NCBI RefSeq assembly: GCF_049969415.1
Contig: NZ_JBMFOX010000007.1
Coordinates: 1 to 50,530 of the forward strand
DNA: 50,530 nucleotides
Direction: 5' to 3'
Source: Candidatus Hadarchaeum sp.
Lineage (GTDB): Archaea > Hadarchaeota > Hadarchaeia > Hadarchaeales > Hadarchaeaceae
A program made the position numbers and the translations under genes. This document shows positions 3 through 9,253 of this stretch, piece by piece. The stretch's first letter is position 1, and each line of letters opens with the position of its first letter. Under the pieces are notes generated by a model, which saw nothing but the letters and a program-made list of their open reading frames with translations, was not told the DNA's origin and ran no database searches.

Positions 3-428
3 GCTTATTTCAAACACGTTGTCTCAGCCGCCCACGGTATTTTACGCCAGCTGAAGCTCACGCCGCAGGACTTTTCCTATGCGGTTTTTCATCAACCCAA
101 TGGAAAGTTTCCCTGCCAGGTGGCCGAGGAGCTCGGTTTTTCTAGGGCACAGATCGCCTGCGGCCTGGTGGCACCAAAAATCGGCAACACCTATTCCGGG
201 TCCGCAATGATAGGTCTGGCGGCTGTTTTGGACAAGGCCAAGCCCGGCGAAAGGATTTTGGTCGTTTCGTATGGTTCAGGCGCCGGAAGCGATGCCTTTA
301 GTATTAAGGTTAAAGAAGCGATAGAGGAAAAGCGGGACTTGGCGCCTAAGGTGGAAGAATTTCTCAACAGCAAGATTTACGTTGATTACTCGACGTATGT
401 CAAGTACAAGAGGCTTTTGGTGAAATAA
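3..428 (+). CDS. Hydroxymethylglutaryl-CoA synthase, C-terminal part (5' end outside the window)
   Basis: Frame is open from position 3: AYFKH...FHQPNGKFP...IGNTYSGS...SYGSGAGSD, typical of archaeal HMGS. Stop overlaps the thiolase start. Confidence 0.93.
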
Positions 429-1591
429 TGCGTGATGTGGCCATCATTGGTGTTGGTATAACCAAGTTCGGTGAGCTCTGGGATCTTTCTTTCCGGCAGA
501 TGATCATAGAAGCTGGCGCGCGCGCGTTGGAAGATGCCGGTATCGACGGCAAGCAGATAGATGCCATGTATGTTGGAAACATGTCTTCAGGACAGTTCAT
601 ATGTCAGGAGCACATAGCTTCGTTGATTGCCGACCATGCCGGCTTAGCGCCGATACCAGCTACCAGGGTGGAGGCGGCCTGCGCCTCTGGCGGCCTAGCG
701 CTGCGGCAGGCGGTCATCTCGGTAGCCTCGGGAGTTCATGATTATGTCGTGGCGGCGGGTATCGAGAAGATGACCGATGTCCTGTCGGAGCAGGCAACCG
801 GTGCTTTGGCCACGGCGGCCGACCAGGAGTGGGAGGTCTCCGCCGGGGCGACCTTCCCCGGCCTTTACGCATTGATGGCCCGGCGTCATATGTATGAGTT
901 TGGCACGACCGAGGAACAGATGGCTATGGTAGCAGTCAAGAATCACAACAATGCCTGTATGAATCCCTGCGCCCAGTATCACATGAGGATTACTGTTGAT
1001 AACGTTCTGAGATCACCGCCTGTGGTTCTCCCGCTAAAGCTTTTGGATTGCTCGCCGATTACCGACGGTGCCGCCTGCGTGATTGTGGCTCCAGCTGAAA
1101 AGGCGCGGAAGATGGATAGGGTGCCTGTGCACGTCATCGGCACTGGGCAGGCCAGTGACACGATATCCCTCCACAGCCGGCCATCCCTCACCGGTCTGAG
1201 GGCGACGACTGAGGCGGCTAGGATGGCTTATAAAATGGCCCGGATTGGTCCCGAGGATGTTGATGTGGCGGAGGTCCACGACTGCTTCACCATCGCCGAG
1301 ATTATGGCGATTGAGGATCTCGGTTTCTGCAAGAAAGGTGAAGGTGGAAAACTTACTGAAGAGGGACAGACTGAGATAGGCGGAAAGATTCCGATAAACA
1401 CCAGCGGGGGCCTCAAGGGCAAAGGTCATCCGGTTGGAGCCACAGGAATTGCCCAGGTTGTGGAGATAGTTCAACAGCTGCGCGGGGAAGCGGGCAAGCG
1501 GCAGGTCAAGGGGGCCGAGATCGGGCTGACGCACAACGTGGGCGGGACTGGAGGCACCGCAGTGGTTCATATCTTCAAAAGGGGTGATTGA
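428..1591 (+). CDS. Acetoacetyl-CoA thiolase (archaeal)
   Basis: VEAACASG catalytic Cys, [22 protein letters not shown]. Lies between HMGS and DUF35. Confidence 0.95.
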
Positions 1592-4207: not shown

Positions 4208-4720
4208 CTACTCGAATATTATGGTGTAGTTTTTATTAGTTAACTTGCTCAAGGCGGCCTCCAGTTTTTCCTTGTGTCTGGGCAATCGCCTCGCGTGTTG
4301 GCGAGGCACTCTGATCCTGTATTCGTCACCTGATTTGGTGTAGAGTATGTTAATTCCAAGAACATCGGCAGGGGTTAAAAGGTCCTGAATGAGTTTTTTC
4401 TCAGTAGAGCCTTCCTCGACTATGCGGACTTTGCTTTTCAAAATGTTTTCGAGTTCTTGGACGATTCTACCCCTCCTGCCGATGAGGAGAGGGATTTGTC
4501 CCGCCCCGACTACTAAAATGACTAGCCCATCCACATCGACCGCGCGTTTAAAAATGAGCTGGTCCAATTCCTTATGTTTTTTTGAAAGCTCAAAAAGTGC
4601 CAGCGAGATATTAAGCTCTAATTTTGATATTTTTCCTTCCTGAAGCTTTTGACTGCAGCCTTGGCAGAGTATGCCGCTCTTTAGACATATCTTGCAAATC
4701 GGCGTCTGCAAGCTAATCAA
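4208..4720 (-). CDS. Archaeal NusA-like KH-domain protein with N-terminal Zn finger
   Basis: PICKICLKSGILCQGC and KH motif LIGRRG. Confidence 0.85.
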   Translation of the reverse strand: MISLQTPICKICLKSGILCQGCSQKLQEGKISKLELNISLALFELSKKHKELDQLIFKRAVDVDGLVILVVGAGQIPLLIGRRGRIVQELENILKSKVRIVEEGSTEKKLIQDLLTPADVLGINILYTKSGDEYRIRVPRQHARRLPRHKEKLEAALSKLTNKNYTIIFE

Positions 4721-4814: not shown

Positions 4815-5102
4815 TCATTGCCCCTTTCCGAGCACTATTTCTATAGTCGAAACGTTTGTGGTACCGCCTTCCGCCTGCATCGTTTCGGTTCCTATTGAAA
4901 TGTTTCGAACCACCATGTTGGGCAAAAATCTGTTTCTGACGATCTCTGCGACATCGACTGCCCTGCTAATCGCTTTACCTCGTGCCTTGAGGGTAATTTC
5001 GTTGATGCCCTGATTGAACTGCGTAATCACTGCCAAGACATAGTTCATCACTGGTTTCACTCCAATAAAAACCACATTTTCGGCGGTCTTTTGTTCTGCC
5101 AT
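4815..5102 (-). CDS. albA: DNA/RNA-binding protein Alba
   Basis: [46 protein letters not shown] at 5102 is preceded by GGAGG. Confidence 0.96.
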
Positions 5103-5190
5103 AGTTTCTTGCCTCCTTTGTTTATTTGTAGTTTTTTCTCGTTTCGGAACCAATAAATACCTTTCGATTTCAGCCCCGCCGTTTTGGTGT

Positions 5191-5592
5191 CTAGCCACGT
5201 AGATTCCTAACCAGCTGGACCATCCGGCGCTCAATTCTGTCTCTAATTTCCTCCACATTTCCGGTTCCCTTTGCCAGCTCGTTGTAGTCTATGAGATCGT
5301 CGATTAAGATTTCCGCAGTCTCTCTGTCTAGAATTCCAGAGTAAATGGCCAGTTCTATGGTGTAAAATGAGCGCATTATGGCATTTTTTCCTTTTTTCCA
5401 CCTTTTCCAGGCTCCAGAACGGTTTATTTTGAGTTTTTTGCCAATATCTTCAAAAGTTGGGTTCTCGGACCAATAATAAAGAAGCATCGCTTTCAAGGTT
5501 TTTTCGTCCAAATGTGACCGCTCCAACAGGACTTTTGCCAGAAGGTTGTCGCGGAGCCAATCCCCTGCTCGCGGCGTTTTACCGGCTTCCAT
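5191..5592 (-). CDS. Uncharacterised archaeal HTH DNA-binding protein (sigma70-r4/Tfx-like HTH)
   Basis: [25 protein letters not shown] pattern. Start uncertain (5592 or 5628). Confidence 0.7.
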
Positions 5593-5661
5593 GGAACTCG
5601 TCTCCTTGTTTCCTATTTTGGGAAACAAAGATAAATAGTTGTGCTCAGGAGTTTACCTAGG

Positions 5662-6531
5662 TTATCCGAACAGACGCCTCCAAAAAGAAACCTTGTTCGC
5701 TTTTTTCACCACACGTTCGTCGATCGGTACATCTAAAGCCGCGGCTAGGTGGAGGGCCTTGTCGGCGACCTTGAGAGCCAGCCTTGGGTTGCCTTTGCTC
5801 AGCTTGTAAATCGCGTCAAAGCCGTCAGGAGTTATCAAAGCATCGTAATTCAGGCATCCGGCGCTCTTCAATCTTAGCTTTAACAGGTCTTTTATTGTTT
5901 CTTTGCTCATTGGCTCAAGCTCCACGTATAATTGAACTCGGTCTCTCAGCGATGGAACTTTGTCCAAAAACCGCTGCATTTGATTTTTTTCCCCGTTGAT
6001 CAGAATAGAGATGTTCGGAATGTCTGAAAGCACGCGCAAAAACTCACCTATTTCAAGCACGTTGGCGCCACTCTCAGGAATGTCGTCGATGATGATGATC
6101 AGGCGTTCTTGATGGTCGTGATGCCATCTTCTCAAAACGTCAAAAAGGCTCGCGTCGTCTTTGTCTACTGGCATTTCCAGCGCGAGCAATATTGCCCTAA
6201 TAATCTCTCCAGATGACTTGTAAGCGGCTCCGTGGACGAGAATAGGTATGGTTTGTTTGGAAGGATCTGTCATTGATAGGCTTTCCTCCCTTAATGCGGA
6301 GACAAGAAACTCACACAGCGTAGTCTTTCCCATCCCTAAATCTCCGGTGAGGACACCAACTTTGCCTTCCAAAAGCAATTGTTTGATTTTTCGGATATCT
6401 TCTTGCTGTGATGGAGCAAAAGCGTCAATTGAAGGCATTTCAAAGCTAAAAGGGTCTTTTTTTAGCCCCCAACGTTGAATAAAGGCTTCAAAACGTTGAT
6501 CTTTTCCAATTTTTTCATCAAATGTAGTCAT
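5662..6531 (-). CDS. ExeA/GspA-like (AAA_22-type) AAA+ ATPase with C-terminal amphipathic helix
   Basis: WGLKKDPF N-terminus, Walker [10 protein letters not shown], Walker B IIIIDD, Arg finger LRDRV, sensor II GNPR. Ends [10 protein letters not shown]. Confidence 0.85.
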
Positions 6532-7115
6532 TTAATAACCTCAACCTGCATCTCAAAAATTCCGTTTTTCTCGATCACGTAGCCTAGCGAGAGCATGCGC
6601 TGGCAGAACAAGTTGGCTACGTTCTCAGGGCAACGGGCCCTGGCGGAGAGATCTTTACTGGTAAATTTTTTTAGAAGAACAGCCGCGGACAAAAGGTCGC
6701 CGAAAGCCGAGCGGATAGCCAACCCTGGCGGTTCCAGAGCGTCAAGTATCGCATAACGCGTTAATTCTTTTGGTTTGCTGAGTTTTTCAATAATTTCTGG
6801 CTTCGGTGCTACCGGTGCGGTTGGTTCAATTTTAGGTGTCTCATCTATTTTTGCTTTTTCAATCTTTTCATTTTCTGGAGGTATTTTTTCCTTTTTTAGT
6901 TCAATTTCGGCCGTTTTAACTTTTATTTCTTCTTTTTCCGCGCTTAAAGGAGTTATTTTTCCAATAATTCTTAAAATTTCGCTTTCAGGTATAAGACGCC
7001 TGTTACCTGGAGTGCGGATACATTTAATTTTTCCTTGTTTATCCCATCTCTGTAGGGTTTTGGTACACACCCTGAGGATCTCTCTGGCTTCTTTTAAAGT
7101 GTACATCCTTTCCAT
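6528..7115 (-). CDS. MerR/BldC/IS607-type HTH + charged Pro-rich linker + putative winged-helix protein
   Basis: [39 protein letters not shown]; E/K/P-rich linker; C-terminal [33 protein letters not shown] wH-like pattern. ATGA overlap with the ATPase. Confidence 0.8.
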
Positions 7116-7144
7116 ATGTCCACAATTGTCAATTTATGTCCAAT

Positions 7145-7157
7145 TATTTAAGCTTAA
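7145..7157 (-). promoter_or_regulatory. Putative TATA box of the HTH-ATPase operon
   Basis: TTAAGCTTAAATA about 30 nt upstream of ATG 7115, flanked by TGTC repeats. Confidence 0.5.
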
Positions 7158-7306
7158 TTGTGATTGTCTATATTTGTCCACATCTTAAAAAAAGCATAGT
7201 CCATATTTTTTGAAAATTAAGCGATTGTTATACACTTCTTACAAGCGTTAAAGTGGCCCTATAACGCGTTTAATTAGCGATTTTCCAAATATTCTGTTAA
7301 TTTTTT

Positions 7307-7338
7307 AAATGTGAGATATCGATCGAACACTCACATTT
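7307..7338. promoter_or_regulatory. Inverted repeat AAATGTGAG-N14-CTCACATTT
   Basis: Perfect 9-bp arms at 7307-7315 and 7330-7338. Confidence 0.5.
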
Positions 7339-7435
7339 TTTATCTGTCCACATTTGTCTATTGTCTACTTATGCGTACATTTTTCCAACTGTATACCTTT
7401 TTCTATTTTTGTCTTTTTTTGTCATCAAATGTATG

Positions 7436-8449
7436 CTAACATATTCTTGGAGCTGGGTCACCTAGAGGAGGTTCCAACAATCTTTTTCCACCAACAACGG
7501 TTTCGATAATTACATTGCCAGAATATTTGTCGATTACTTCACCAATTATTTTAGCATTTTTCCCATACTTTGTTTTTTTAATGGCTTCAAGTACCAACTC
7601 GCATTTATCGGGTTCGACAGCCATGACTGCTTTTCCTTCATTGGTAATTTGAAGAGGGTCTATACCCAGCATTTCGCTAGCGGCCCTAACAGAATTTAAA
7701 ATTGGAATTTCACTTTCCTTGATGAGTATGCCTACATGCGCCTTTTCGGCCATTTCATTTAGAGCCGCGTTAAGCCCGCCTCTGGTGGGATCTTTCATAG
7801 CAGTTACTCCACCAACTTTCAGCGCGGCCGCAACGGTTTCCCATAAAGGCGCAACATCCGACACCAAATCCGCCGCCAGCCCGATTCCTTCTCTATGGGC
7901 GAGGATGGTCATGCCGTGATCACCGATGGTGCCAGTAACGATGATTTTGTCCCCGGGCTTAAGTCCCCGGTCAGTGATAATTTTTTCAGCCAATCCAACG
8001 CCGGTGGTGGTTATAATCACTCCATCAAGAGCGCCCTTTTCCATGACTTTAAAATCACCGGTAATTAACGGGCAGCCAACCTCTTGGGAGGTTAGGTTCA
8101 TTGAGCGAAAGATTCTTTCTAAGTCGGCGATGGGGAAACCTTCTTCAACCACCAACGCGCAGGCCATGGCCAGCGGCCGTCCTCCCATCATCGCCATGTC
8201 GTTGATCGTTCCCGATACCGAGAGCCTGCCGATATCACCTCCAGGAAAGAACAGGGGCTTTACCGTGTGCGAATCGGTGGTCAATACCAAGGTTTTATCC
8301 CCGATAGAAATGCTGGCCCCGTCGTCAAGGGCGTCCAGACCCACCTCTCCTGCGCTTTTAAGGTCGATTTCCTTCAAAATGATGTCCTTTATAAGATCCA
8401 TCATAATTTTACCGCCGGCTCCGTGAGAAAGGGTAATCCTTTCAGACAT
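7436..8449 (-). CDS. hypE: Hydrogenase maturation factor HypE
   Basis: ITLSHGAGG, TTDSHTVKPLFFPGGDIG, MKDPTRGG, C-terminal PRIC. GGTGA SD before ATG 8449. Confidence 0.96.
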   Translation of the reverse strand: MSERITLSHGAGGKIMMDLIKDIILKEIDLKSAGEVGLDALDDGASISIGDKTLVLTTDSHTVKPLFFPGGDIGRLSVSGTINDMAMMGGRPLAMACALVVEEGFPIADLERIFRSMNLTSQEVGCPLITGDFKVMEKGALDGVIITTTGVGLAEKIITDRGLKPGDKIIVTGTIGDHGMTILAHREGIGLAADLVSDVAPLWETVAAALKVGGVTAMKDPTRGGLNAALNEMAEKAHVGILIKESEIPILNSVRAASEMLGIDPLQITNEGKAVMAVEPDKCELVLEAIKKTKYGKNAKIIGEVIDKYSGNVIIETVVGGKRLLEPPLGDPAPRIC

Positions 8450-8563
8450 ACGGTCACCACAATACCCGACCACGGTTATTTTTAAATCCAGGCATGGTCA
8501 ACCTAGACATCCTTTAAGCAGCTATAATTAAGCCTTTCAGGTACAATTCGTTTTTGGTTCGAT

Positions 8564-9253
8564 ATGTTGCCAAGGTTCGATTTCCACACCCATACCCGTT
8601 ACTCTGACGGCACCTCTAGCCATGCTGAGATTGTCGAGGCAGCGGTGGTTCGGGGGCTGGAGGCTCTGGCCTTCACTGACCATGGTCCGGAACTGAAGGT
8701 GGGTGTGGCTAAGGAGAAAATGTCGCAGATGCTTGAGGATATAAAAATGGTGGAGGAGGAGGCTGAGATACCGGTGTTGGCCGGAATTGAAGCCAACGTA
8801 ATTAGCCGATACGGTGTTTTGGATGTGGAGGAGGAATTCATCAAAAAAATTGATTTGGTTTCCATAGGGATTCACGATATGGAGGAGATTTACCTCAGCG
8901 ATGAGGCGCACGAATACCTATCCCGTGCCGTTCGCGCAATAGAGCGACAGAGGGTTGATGTCTTCTGCCACCCCTTTTTCTACAATGTTGACTTGCTACC
9001 GTGTCTTTCTTGGGATGAGATCGAGGATTTTGTTGATCTGGCCGCGGAAAAGGACGTGGCTATGGAAGTCAACGTTAAATACAGAGTCCCCAGTGATGAT
9101 TTCATCAGTTTGTGCCTTAAAAAGGGGGTAAAGCTCAGCATAGGCTCAGATGCACATCGCGCTTCAGAAGTCGGAAAGATCGATTGGGCACTTTCAGCCC
9201 TCAAGCGTGTTGGGGCCAAAAGTGAGGATTTGATTTTCGATAATTTCCGGTGA
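8564..9253 (+). CDS. PHP-family metal-dependent phosphoesterase
   Basis: DFHTHTRYSDG, FTDH, GIEAN, HP, GSDAH. Confidence 0.9.
   Translation: MLPRFDFHTHTRYSDGTSSHAEIVEAAVVRGLEALAFTDHGPELKVGVAKEKMSQMLEDIKMVEEEAEIPVLAGIEANVISRYGVLDVEEEFIKKIDLVSIGIHDMEEIYLSDEAHEYLSRAVRAIERQRVDVFCHPFFYNVDLLPCLSWDEIEDFVDLAAEKDVAMEVNVKYRVPSDDFISLCLKKGVKLSIGSDAHRASEVGKIDWALSALKRVGAKSEDLIFDNFR

Follow-up and report, generated by a model that had tools for sequence, protein, structure and literature searches.

Phased TGTC repeats at the promoter of a BldC-like regulator gene in Candidatus Hadarchaeum: a probable autoregulatory operator

Which protein, if any, reads the ten copies of the tetranucleotide TGTC that lie in a single orientation in front of an archaeal regulator gene, and what are they for? 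The repeats are found in a 320-bp spacer (positions 7116-7435) of the window analysed here, by which we mean the whole stretch of 50,530 nt, contig NZ_JBMFOX010000007.1 of Candidatus Hadarchaeum sp. (genome of approximately 1.47 Mb in 138 contigs, 95% complete). The spacer separates two genes on the minus strand, hypE and a gene encoding a 195-aa helix-turn-helix (HTH) protein, the regulator, and its GC content is 29% as compared to 54% in the window. The repeats are real and conserved, and they are almost certainly protein-binding sites. The reading that we consider probable is that of an autoregulatory operator array, which flanks the TATA-like box of the regulator gene and to which the regulator itself binds head-to-tail with its BldC-like domain.

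The TGTC array and its conservation

On the plus strand of the spacer, TGTC is present at 7117, 7127, 7137, 7165, 7175, 7345, 7355, 7362, 7410 and 7420, and five successive pairs are spaced by exactly 10 bp. Direct counting revealed no GACA, which would be TGTC on the minus strand, in 7116-7435. A first-pass annotation of this DNA had described ten one-strand TGTC with 10-bp phasing, and the count confirms it; TGTCCACA at 7117, 7175 and 7345, TTGTCCACA at 7174-7182 and TTATACACT at 7228-7236 were likewise all present as claimed. Ten TGTC are the maximum per 320 bp in the window on either strand, the opposite-sense maximum being seven, and the 50.5 kb of the window contain TGTC 172 times and GACA 137 times. 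As a null model, 20,000 dinucleotide-preserving shuffles of the spacer were used, and the phasing turned out to be far above chance: TGTC occurred 1.9 times on average and at most eight times per shuffled spacer, and at least two exact 10-bp spacings were found in 0.01% of the shuffles, while the spacer itself has five. To correct for the fact that TGTC was picked after looking, all 4-mers with at least three different letters were counted in 3,000 shuffles. The best 10-bp-spaced count of any such word did not exceed two, as compared to five observed.

The repeat unit is longer than TGTC. Seventy-five sites in nine related loci conform approximately to W-T-W-TGTC-Y-A-Y-W, and 34 of their 66 successive spacings are exactly 10 bp. 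The G and the C of TGTC are invariant over all these sites despite the AT-rich background, while the flanks vary. When the 1.47-Mb genome was scanned for other copies with a matrix built from the ten sites, 33 matches were obtained, with clusters only at the two blocks of the spacer, one proximal to the regulator gene and one distal. Since the matrix was derived from the same ten sites, this shows only that no second array exists.

The HTH protein was matched at E ≤ 0.001 in 26 of 41 related genomes, and one of its homologues is labelled Candidatus Hadarchaeaceae by its source. Inspection of the regions upstream of the orthologues, which the annotation had proposed as a check, revealed that the TGTC positions are kept in related genomes while the sequence between the clusters has diverged. 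The offsets of TGTC from the start codon (13, 23, 33, 61 and 71) are identical in the window and in the four closest loci (L002-L005), and the proximal offsets in L006, L007, L009 and L012 are within 1-2 bp of those in the window. L002-L004 retain the distal block, in which a 10/7 spacing is followed by another pair after approximately 47 bp, and parts of this block are found in L005, L006 and L009; the 10/7 spacing of the distal trio is found in L002, L004 and L005, and L003 has a 10-bp pair. The stretch between the blocks (approximately 160 bp) is unalignable among the loci of the genus, and its length varies from 145 to 197 bp in L001-L005. From the last proximal to the first distal TGTC the distances in these loci are 170, 186, 145, 166 and 197 bp; no fixed phase between the blocks is apparent from them, five related loci being few for such a comparison. 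Some orthologous contigs (G003:C55, G010:C43, G030:C3 and G021:C22) stop 70-290 bp upstream of the HTH start, and assemblies seem to break in the AT-rich repeat spacer.

The proximal block is interleaved with the promoter of the regulator gene, the start codon of which is located at 7115-7113 on the minus strand. From the archaeal promoter consensus, we take the minus-strand sequence at 7144-7157 to be composed of a TATA-like box (TTAAATAA, 7151-7144) and, upstream of it, the sequence TTAAGC (7157-7152), which resembles a B recognition element (BRE). The TATA-like box is kept as TTATATA, TTAAATA or TTATAAG in the genus alignment. Between it and the ATG lies the proximal trio of 10-bp units (TGTC at 7117, 7127 and 7137; 7117-7146, plus strand). 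The box is housed in the 18-bp gap between this trio and the upstream pair (TGTC at 7165 and 7175; 7165-7184, plus strand), which is situated just upstream of BRE and TATA, includes TTGTCCACA in its 7175 unit, and is kept at offsets 61/71 (or 62/72) in the genus loci. Because the centre of the TATA-like box is approximately 32 nt from the ATG, the mRNA should be leaderless or near-leaderless. The usual archaeal spacing between TATA box and transcription start puts the start a few nt before the ATG of the HTH gene, and the trio would therefore cover the expected start site. Thus the idea that the left cluster extends across a putative TATA box to the beginning of the HTH gene was borne out: the box is conserved and the trio abuts the ATG.

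The repeat motif changes together with the recognition helix of the regulator. For each orthologue, the commonest 4-mer in the 160 nt upstream was chosen blind to the protein. Where the helix reads C/S-T/N-K-T-I/L-Q-R, the top 4-mer is TGTC or GTCC in nine of ten loci. Where it reads H-P/Q-N-T-I/L-R, the top 4-mer is TAAC, ACTA or CAAT in all nine loci, and these three words are parts of TTAACTA/TCTAACAAT. A third helix type was found at L014, together with a GTCC motif. On the tree of the neighbouring ATPase, which is described below, the two helix/motif classes need four changes by parsimony, and well-supported branches make at least two of them unavoidable; in this tree, L012 (TGTC) has L010 (TAAC) as its sister at 100/99. 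These class changes indicate that helix and repeats were replaced jointly on more than one occasion, as is expected of a cognate pair of protein and site. The helix RVHPNTLRRW, encoded in an IS607-type serine recombinase gene of the same genome (contig C82, approximately 385-1000, plus strand), is of the H-P-N type of the TAAC-class orthologues. This suggests that transposases and this operon may have exchanged the DNA-binding module.

The BldC-like regulator and the proposed operator

The regulator gene (6528-7115, minus strand) encodes a BldC-like winged helix of the MerR type (residues 1-52), a disordered linker rich in K, E and P (residues 57-113) and a C-terminal winged helix (residues 117-195). 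In Pfam, HTH_17 (44.1 bits) and MerR score over their cut-offs, and the best NCBIfam match is HTH_BldC (E 7.6e-9, 35.3 bits), followed by transpos_IS607. The best sequence matches in the PDB are 6AMA and 6AMK, both of them BldC-DNA complexes (E 2e-4). The AlphaFold2 model is confident for residues 1-52, with a predicted local distance difference test (pLDDT) value of approximately 90, and for the winged-helix-like residues 117-195, with residues 57-113 disordered in between. In Foldseek, the top seven matches are BldC chains, with template modelling (TM) scores of 0.82-0.88 on the target, a root mean square deviation of 1.1-1.9 Å and 36-38% identity. According to this model, the N-terminal domain would have the MerR-type winged-helix fold without a coiled-coil or effector domain, as in the BldC family. 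The publication on these complexes (PMC5859096) names Arg22, Lys26, Arg30, Gly44 and His46 of BldC for DNA contact or the head-to-tail interface. Four of these five residues are identical in the phmmer alignment (R15, K19, R23 and G37), and His46 corresponds to R39; the mapping infers a 3-residue offset between chain and native numbering, and this offset fits all five residues. In one homologue of the regulator (P0030, 280 aa), the linker that joins the two conserved domains is interrupted by an HNH endonuclease domain (PF01844).

The data show the repeats with their phasing and conservation, the homology and fold of the regulator and the joint change of helix and motif; the actual binding, its stoichiometry, the repression and the role of the distal cluster are what we infer, along the following lines. 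The ten TGTC(Y)A units would be the cognate sites of the protein encoded immediately downstream, and each 10-bp unit would accommodate one N-terminal domain in a common orientation. With all units in the same orientation on one face of the helix, the protomers should be arranged head-to-tail, as in BldC and the IS607 transposase domain. The annotation had proposed a cooperative filament-type site, and on one helix face this is still the best reading, the N-terminal domain being nearest to BldC and the motif changing with the recognition helix. Three units would fill the space from TATA to ATG over the expected start, and two more would be placed just upstream of BRE and TATA. Since the proximal units cover the start and flank the TATA box, their occupancy should shut off the promoter of the regulator and ATPase genes or, at low occupancy, tune it. 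The distal 3+2 cluster, directly behind hypE, is a second array of the same sites. Its most likely role would be that of an auxiliary operator, be it by increasing the occupancy nearby, by looping with the proximal array or by stopping transcription that continues past the end of hypE.

Several observations weigh against this operator. The HTH_BldC score of 35.3 bits is below the curated NCBIfam cut-off of 77 bits, no Foldseek match was found at E ≤ 0.001 (best 1.3e-3), and the regulator is a two-domain protein of 195 aa, whereas BldC is a single domain of 68 residues. The unit, 10 bp with an invariant TGTC beside an AT tract, is not the 9-bp AATTXXXX(C) of BldC. Further, five to ten sites exceed the needs of simple autoregulation, and the lack of a conserved TATA-like box in the distal cluster makes the role of this cluster a guess. 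The binder could be the product of the third gene of the operon or another factor instead. At L008, the exception among the loci with the C-T-K helix, TGTA/TACA is found instead of TGTC and the phasing test fails. Of 27 loci, only 18 pass this general test, which looks for same-strand 4-mers at 10, 11 or 20-22 bp, with p ≤ 0.05, and since the loci are related, the trials are non-independent; the nine failures are L008, L014, L020, L094, L096, L099, L101, L102 and L104.

Should autoregulation be its only function, the array would be a neat cis-element of an ordinary kind. A head-to-tail filament on phased repeats has been described for bacteria and for IS607 transposases, and our literature search revealed, among the publications listed, none on BldC-type regulators or filament binding in archaea, nor on this operon. 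To our knowledge, the phylum Hadarchaeota is known only from metagenome assemblies. With its ten sites, a promoter and a cognate protein, the locus offers a testable archaeal case of filament binding, and the natural specificity swaps (C-T-K with TGTC, H-P-N with TAAC) suggest which residues are responsible for DNA recognition. The case also couples the phased-repeat binding mode to an Orc1/Cdc6-like ATPase, which hints at a chromosomal nucleoprotein machine.

The predicted ATPase partner and other explanations of the array

The gene following the regulator gene, which it overlaps by 4 nt, encodes a 289-aa AAA+ ATPase (AAA_22; 5662-6531, minus strand) with an Orc1/Cdc6-like fold and without a C-terminal winged helix. 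Of the 20 loci compared, 17 related ones and the window's own have a complete open reading frame (ORF) for this ATPase directly after the HTH gene. The remaining loci are L002, where the ATPase runs off the contig, and L015 (G022:C8), where it is split by Ns into two ORFs with X in the translation, an assembly gap and not a real break. The ATPase profile was found in 35 of the 41 relatives. A database search with the protein gave 75 strong matches (E ≤ 2e-83), after which the next one was at E 7e-5. Each strong match that carries a name is from Hadarchaeota, and strong homologues seem to be confined to this phylum; the sources label them ExeA or AAA family ATPase. The structure model (pLDDT 89) has the archaeal Orc1/Cdc6 protein 1w5t_A as the best fold match (E 1.9e-10, TM 0.70 on query), followed by Cdc6, TnsC, MuB and RFC.

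Modelling predicts that the ATPase binds the C-domain of the regulator. The predicted complex of the ATPase with regulator residues 112-195 scored 0.64, while the best of three controls scored 0.00. The mark used for this score is reached by 116 of 157 solved complexes and by two of 215 mismatched pairs; since the alignments were made for this analysis, these counts apply only approximately here. At least 82% of the contacts are shared between the runs, the partner pLDDT is at least 87, and the predicted interface uses the invariant C-domain residues R120, L132, R135, F138, G139, C162 and P163.

Given this predicted interaction, the array may also be an assembly platform. Its main task would then be to line up 5+5 regulator molecules as adaptors, the C-domains of which, on flexible linkers, concentrate the ATPase at one chromosomal site. 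We regard this as rather unlikely to be the main function, and it is compatible with autoregulation rather than exclusive of it. Besides the complex model with its invariant interface residues, it is in line with the 4-nt gene overlap, with the constant succession of the two genes in the 17 complete related loci and in the window, and with the wide occurrence of the ATPase profile. Also the layout, two direct-repeat blocks around or beside a promoter upstream of the gene for the binding protein, is that of parC and tubC. On the other hand, the complex may have passed because winged helices are known to pack on Orc/Cdc6 AAA+ modules, the locus is conserved and chromosomal and not on a plasmid, and we know of no AAA+ protein of this clade that acts as a segregation motor.

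Family f2 and family f4 (genus g15), in which the gene preceding the ATPase encodes a different HTH type, bear on both sides of this question. The f2 loci L100, L103, L104 and L105 still have an array upstream despite the different adaptor HTH, with GTAGG-N7-CCTAC spaced by approximately 21 bp, which supports a platform. The three f4 loci (L099, L101 and L102) fail the phasing test, which argues against it. The C-terminus of the f2 protein has a weak colinear match to the C-domain of the regulator (E 5e-4, probability 31%), and for the f4 adaptor of L099 hhalign detected no similarity to the C-domain (E 0.37). The f2 arrays comprise four to five of the palindromes, approximately 40-160 nt upstream of the adaptor gene; at the three f4 loci, GTAGAC...GACAAC repeats can be seen by eye.

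In an extended form of the platform, which we consider unlikely, the array would be the cis-acting site at which a Hadarchaeota-specific machine is loaded. On the 5+5 sites, a filament of the BldC-like adaptor would tether and nucleate the ATPase, a derivative of Orc1/Cdc6 that has lost its own winged helix, at a unique place of the chromosome, some tens of kb away from where the origin is likely to be. If true, this would be a new kind of archaeal centromere or chromosome-organising site, or else a split, adaptor-directed replication initiator, and the DNA-reading module would have been replaced several times together with its repeats, as one cassette, with the ATPase retained.

The third gene of the operon (5191-5628, minus strand) encodes a small protein with a sigma-70 region-4-like HTH and probably starts at residue 13 of its ORF. 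Neither Pfam nor NCBIfam gave a match for its product; in the nearest Atlas cluster, the members of which are from Hadarchaeota, 14% carry Sigma70_r4. After the operon, an Alba chromatin-protein gene (4815-5258) and a NusA-like KH-domain gene (4208-4720) follow on the same, minus strand. According to PADLOC, the operon proteins match no single anti-phage defence system; models of unrelated systems were matched only at the level of single domains, mad1 by the HTH and, weakly, Avs2, LmuB and PDC-M16A by the P-loop. Upstream, the neighbour hypE (7436-8473, minus strand; Pfam AIRS and AIRS_C) ends where the distal repeats begin, just past its stop codon. In the related genome G014 a hypE homologue (68% identical) is also located upstream of the HTH gene, and in the genus loci the upstream sequence can be recognised as the 3' end of a hypE-like gene.

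The distal cluster could alternatively be a second promoter, a decayed duplicate of the proximal one, which drives a small RNA or an upstream start of the operon. This is improbable in our view, although the cluster does resemble the proximal one in several respects. It is composed of a trio (TGTC at 7345, 7355 and 7362; 7345-7371, plus strand) and a pair (TGTC at 7410 and 7420; 7410-7429, plus strand), which ends 6 nt before the hypE stop codon (7436-7438) and is kept in L002-L004. Thus the 3+2 layout is repeated, and the two blocks align at 69% identity over 32 nt (family D1). Where the coding start follows the proximal block, the distal block is followed by a conserved element, GAAC(A/T)CTCAC(A/G)TTTT (7325-7339, plus strand), which abuts the trio and is conserved in L001-L005. 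Further, the gene-sense strand of the AT-rich core (7185-7344), the sequence of which is non-conserved and variable in length, carries a run of at least five T in five of seven genus loci, 72-174 nt upstream of the ATG, and such a run could end a small RNA. In the window there is a T7 run on the minus strand at 7193-7187, which is a candidate terminator of hypE.

Against a second promoter, no conserved TATA-like box was found by eye in the distal cluster, including the space between its pair and its trio, in the genus alignment. There is also no conserved ORF: on the minus strand of the window, the ATG right after the distal trio is at once followed by TGA, and the two plus-strand ORFs of 42 and 51 aa in the core were rejected as unsupported T-rich translations. 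Rfam gave no match at E ≤ 5 in 6900-7700, and the sequence of the core is not conserved. Among sequencing runs, a search with 6400-8000 listed no RNA run, and the single run listed was a DNA run with 12% of the words of this stretch. In the window, the element at 7325-7339 forms the right arm of a 9-bp inverted repeat (7307-7315 and 7330-7338; AAATGTGAG ... CTCACATTT). By eye, the left arm pairs cleanly in only three of the five loci L001-L005, while the right arm is kept in all five. The element could be a site for another factor, for example the product of the third gene.

The first-pass annotation had also proposed an iteron-like layout with a DNA-unwinding element or a centromere-like one. 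As a replication origin, the two clusters would be initiator sites flanking an unwinding element, and adaptor and ATPase would be a split initiator. The spacer is indeed among the most AT-rich 300-bp stretches of the genome, where 18 regions have less than 32% GC; it alone among the 18 has a repeat array, and the other 17 give no alternative candidate for an origin. The adjoining ATPase is closest in fold to archaeal Orc1/Cdc6 (1w5t_A), and many orthologous contigs break just upstream of the HTH gene. TIGR02928, the orc1/cdc6 model, gives matches over the cut-off only on contigs C18 and C12, and the two true orc1/cdc6 genes found there are in tight gene rows, neither of them with a large or AT-rich spacer beside it. 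In the genome G014 the locus is approximately 30 kb from an orc1/cdc6 gene.

However, archaeal origin boxes flank the unwinding element as inverted copies, while all ten repeats have one orientation. They overlap the TATA box and the ATG like an operator, and their motif changes with the HTH helix as expected for a private regulator. Within the genus the AT-rich core is unalignable, and outside the genus it is absent: upstream of L012 the GC content climbs to 58-68% past 100 bp, and in other genera the spacers are approximately 100-150 bp long, according to a rough ORF-based estimate that includes spurious antisense ORFs. The ATPase gave no match to TIGR02928 at E ≤ 0.001. GC skew is only a weak guide in archaea; on the 1.03-Mb contig G014:C1 of a near-complete relative, two orc1/cdc6 genes (751.5 and 803.3 kb) enclose the minimum of the cumulative skew (772-790 kb). 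The adaptor-ATPase locus at 832-834 kb is 43-60 kb away from this minimum, and no inflection is seen there. The region of 751-836 kb on this contig contains three Orc-like ATPase genes within 85 kb. In the window, a local minimum of the cumulative GC skew at approximately 8000-8560 coincides with the switch of gene orientation from hypE (minus strand) to a PHP-domain gene at 8564 (plus strand), and is probably an effect of the gene strand and not an origin signal. Four patterns resembling origin recognition boxes gave no clustered matches in the 138-contig genome, a result that cannot show the absence of an origin. The one-way repeats, the core unconserved beyond the genus and the skew minimum elsewhere in the relative make an origin very improbable, and with the true orc1/cdc6 genes on other contigs, the iteron-like layout is disfavoured.

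The same holds true for the likeness of TTGTCCACA to a DnaA box. We take this 9-mer to be the actinobacterial DnaA-box consensus, but with 12 copies in the genome as compared to approximately ten expected it is not enriched. DnaA domain IV (PF08299) was not found in the 95%-complete genome, in a search with positive controls in ten of ten bacteria and none of four archaea. A single cross-match of PF00308, the AAA+ module of DnaA, was discarded because this model is also positive in archaeal controls. The likeness is a coincidence.

Last, chance or a sequence-independent curvature, by which phased T-rich units merely bend the promoter and bind no specific protein, deserves hardly any credence in spite of the helically phased T-tracts in a very AT-rich spacer, since it is already contradicted by the shuffles, which never approach the observed phasing, by the invariance of the G and the C of TGTC over 75 sites while the flanks vary, and by the different motif that replaces TGTC where the HTH helix differs.

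Comparison with known systems

The closest known system is BldC of Streptomyces (6AMK and 6AMA; Schumacher et al. 2018), which like the N-terminal domain of the regulator is a MerR-like winged helix without coiled coil and is its best match in sequence and fold. According to PMC5859096, BldC binds 9-bp direct repeats, each with an AT-rich tract and a C-G pair, as asymmetric head-to-tail multimers of variable length, and PMC6428758 states that BldC can repress or activate. A variable number of direct repeats, approximately one protomer per turn and an AT tract with a G/C contact are thus features which have counterparts here, where the repeats are observed and the binding is predicted. Unlike BldC, a bacterial protein of 68 residues with a large regulon, the regulator is an archaeal protein of 195 aa in which a linker leads to a second domain, the predicted binding partner of an AAA+ ATPase. 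Its unit is 10 bp long with an invariant TGTC, and the only site clusters of the genome are at its own promoter.

Similarity also exists to the IS607-family transposases, which are of the same HTH class and carry the N-terminal DNA-binding domain on a flexible linker. For TnpA of this family (IS1535), Chen et al. 2018 (PMC6188088) report helically phased direct motifs in units of approximately 10 bp and a cooperative nucleoprotein filament. In contrast to these transposases, the locus described here has no serine-recombinase domain and no transposon ends, and it is a conserved chromosomal operon with an ATPase.

At the level of layout, the array resembles parC/ParR of plasmid R1 and the type III system tubC/TubR, in which two blocks of direct repeats with approximately one repeat per turn lie around or beside a promoter, upstream of the gene for the binding protein. 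In R1 parC, two sets of five 11-bp repeats are separated by a promoter region of 39 bp, and PMC2241845 and PMC6009700 describe one complex which both autoregulates and is the platform for the NTPase encoded in the operon. The systems differ in their parts: the DNA is bound by a ribbon-helix-helix dimer in the case of ParR and by another winged helix in that of TubR, and their motors are actin- or tubulin-like, whereas the partner in this operon is an AAA+ ATPase and not a motor of the ParA, actin or tubulin type. In addition, parC and tubC belong to plasmids or phages, and here only the proximal cluster flanks the promoter, with the second one approximately 160 bp away. The platform logic is also similar to the adaptor-directed assembly of TnsC or MuB.

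With archaeal oriC the locus shares an AT-rich spacer with repeats beside the gene for an ATPase with Orc1/Cdc6-like fold. It differs from oriC in that the repeats are direct and not inverted about the core, overlap a promoter and co-vary with the HTH helix, that the ATPase has no winged-helix domain and fails the orc1/cdc6 model, and that the skew minimum of the relative is elsewhere. To the bacterial DnaA box, one 9-mer (7174-7182) is identical in letters, while the core conserved here is TGTCYA and not the 9-mer.

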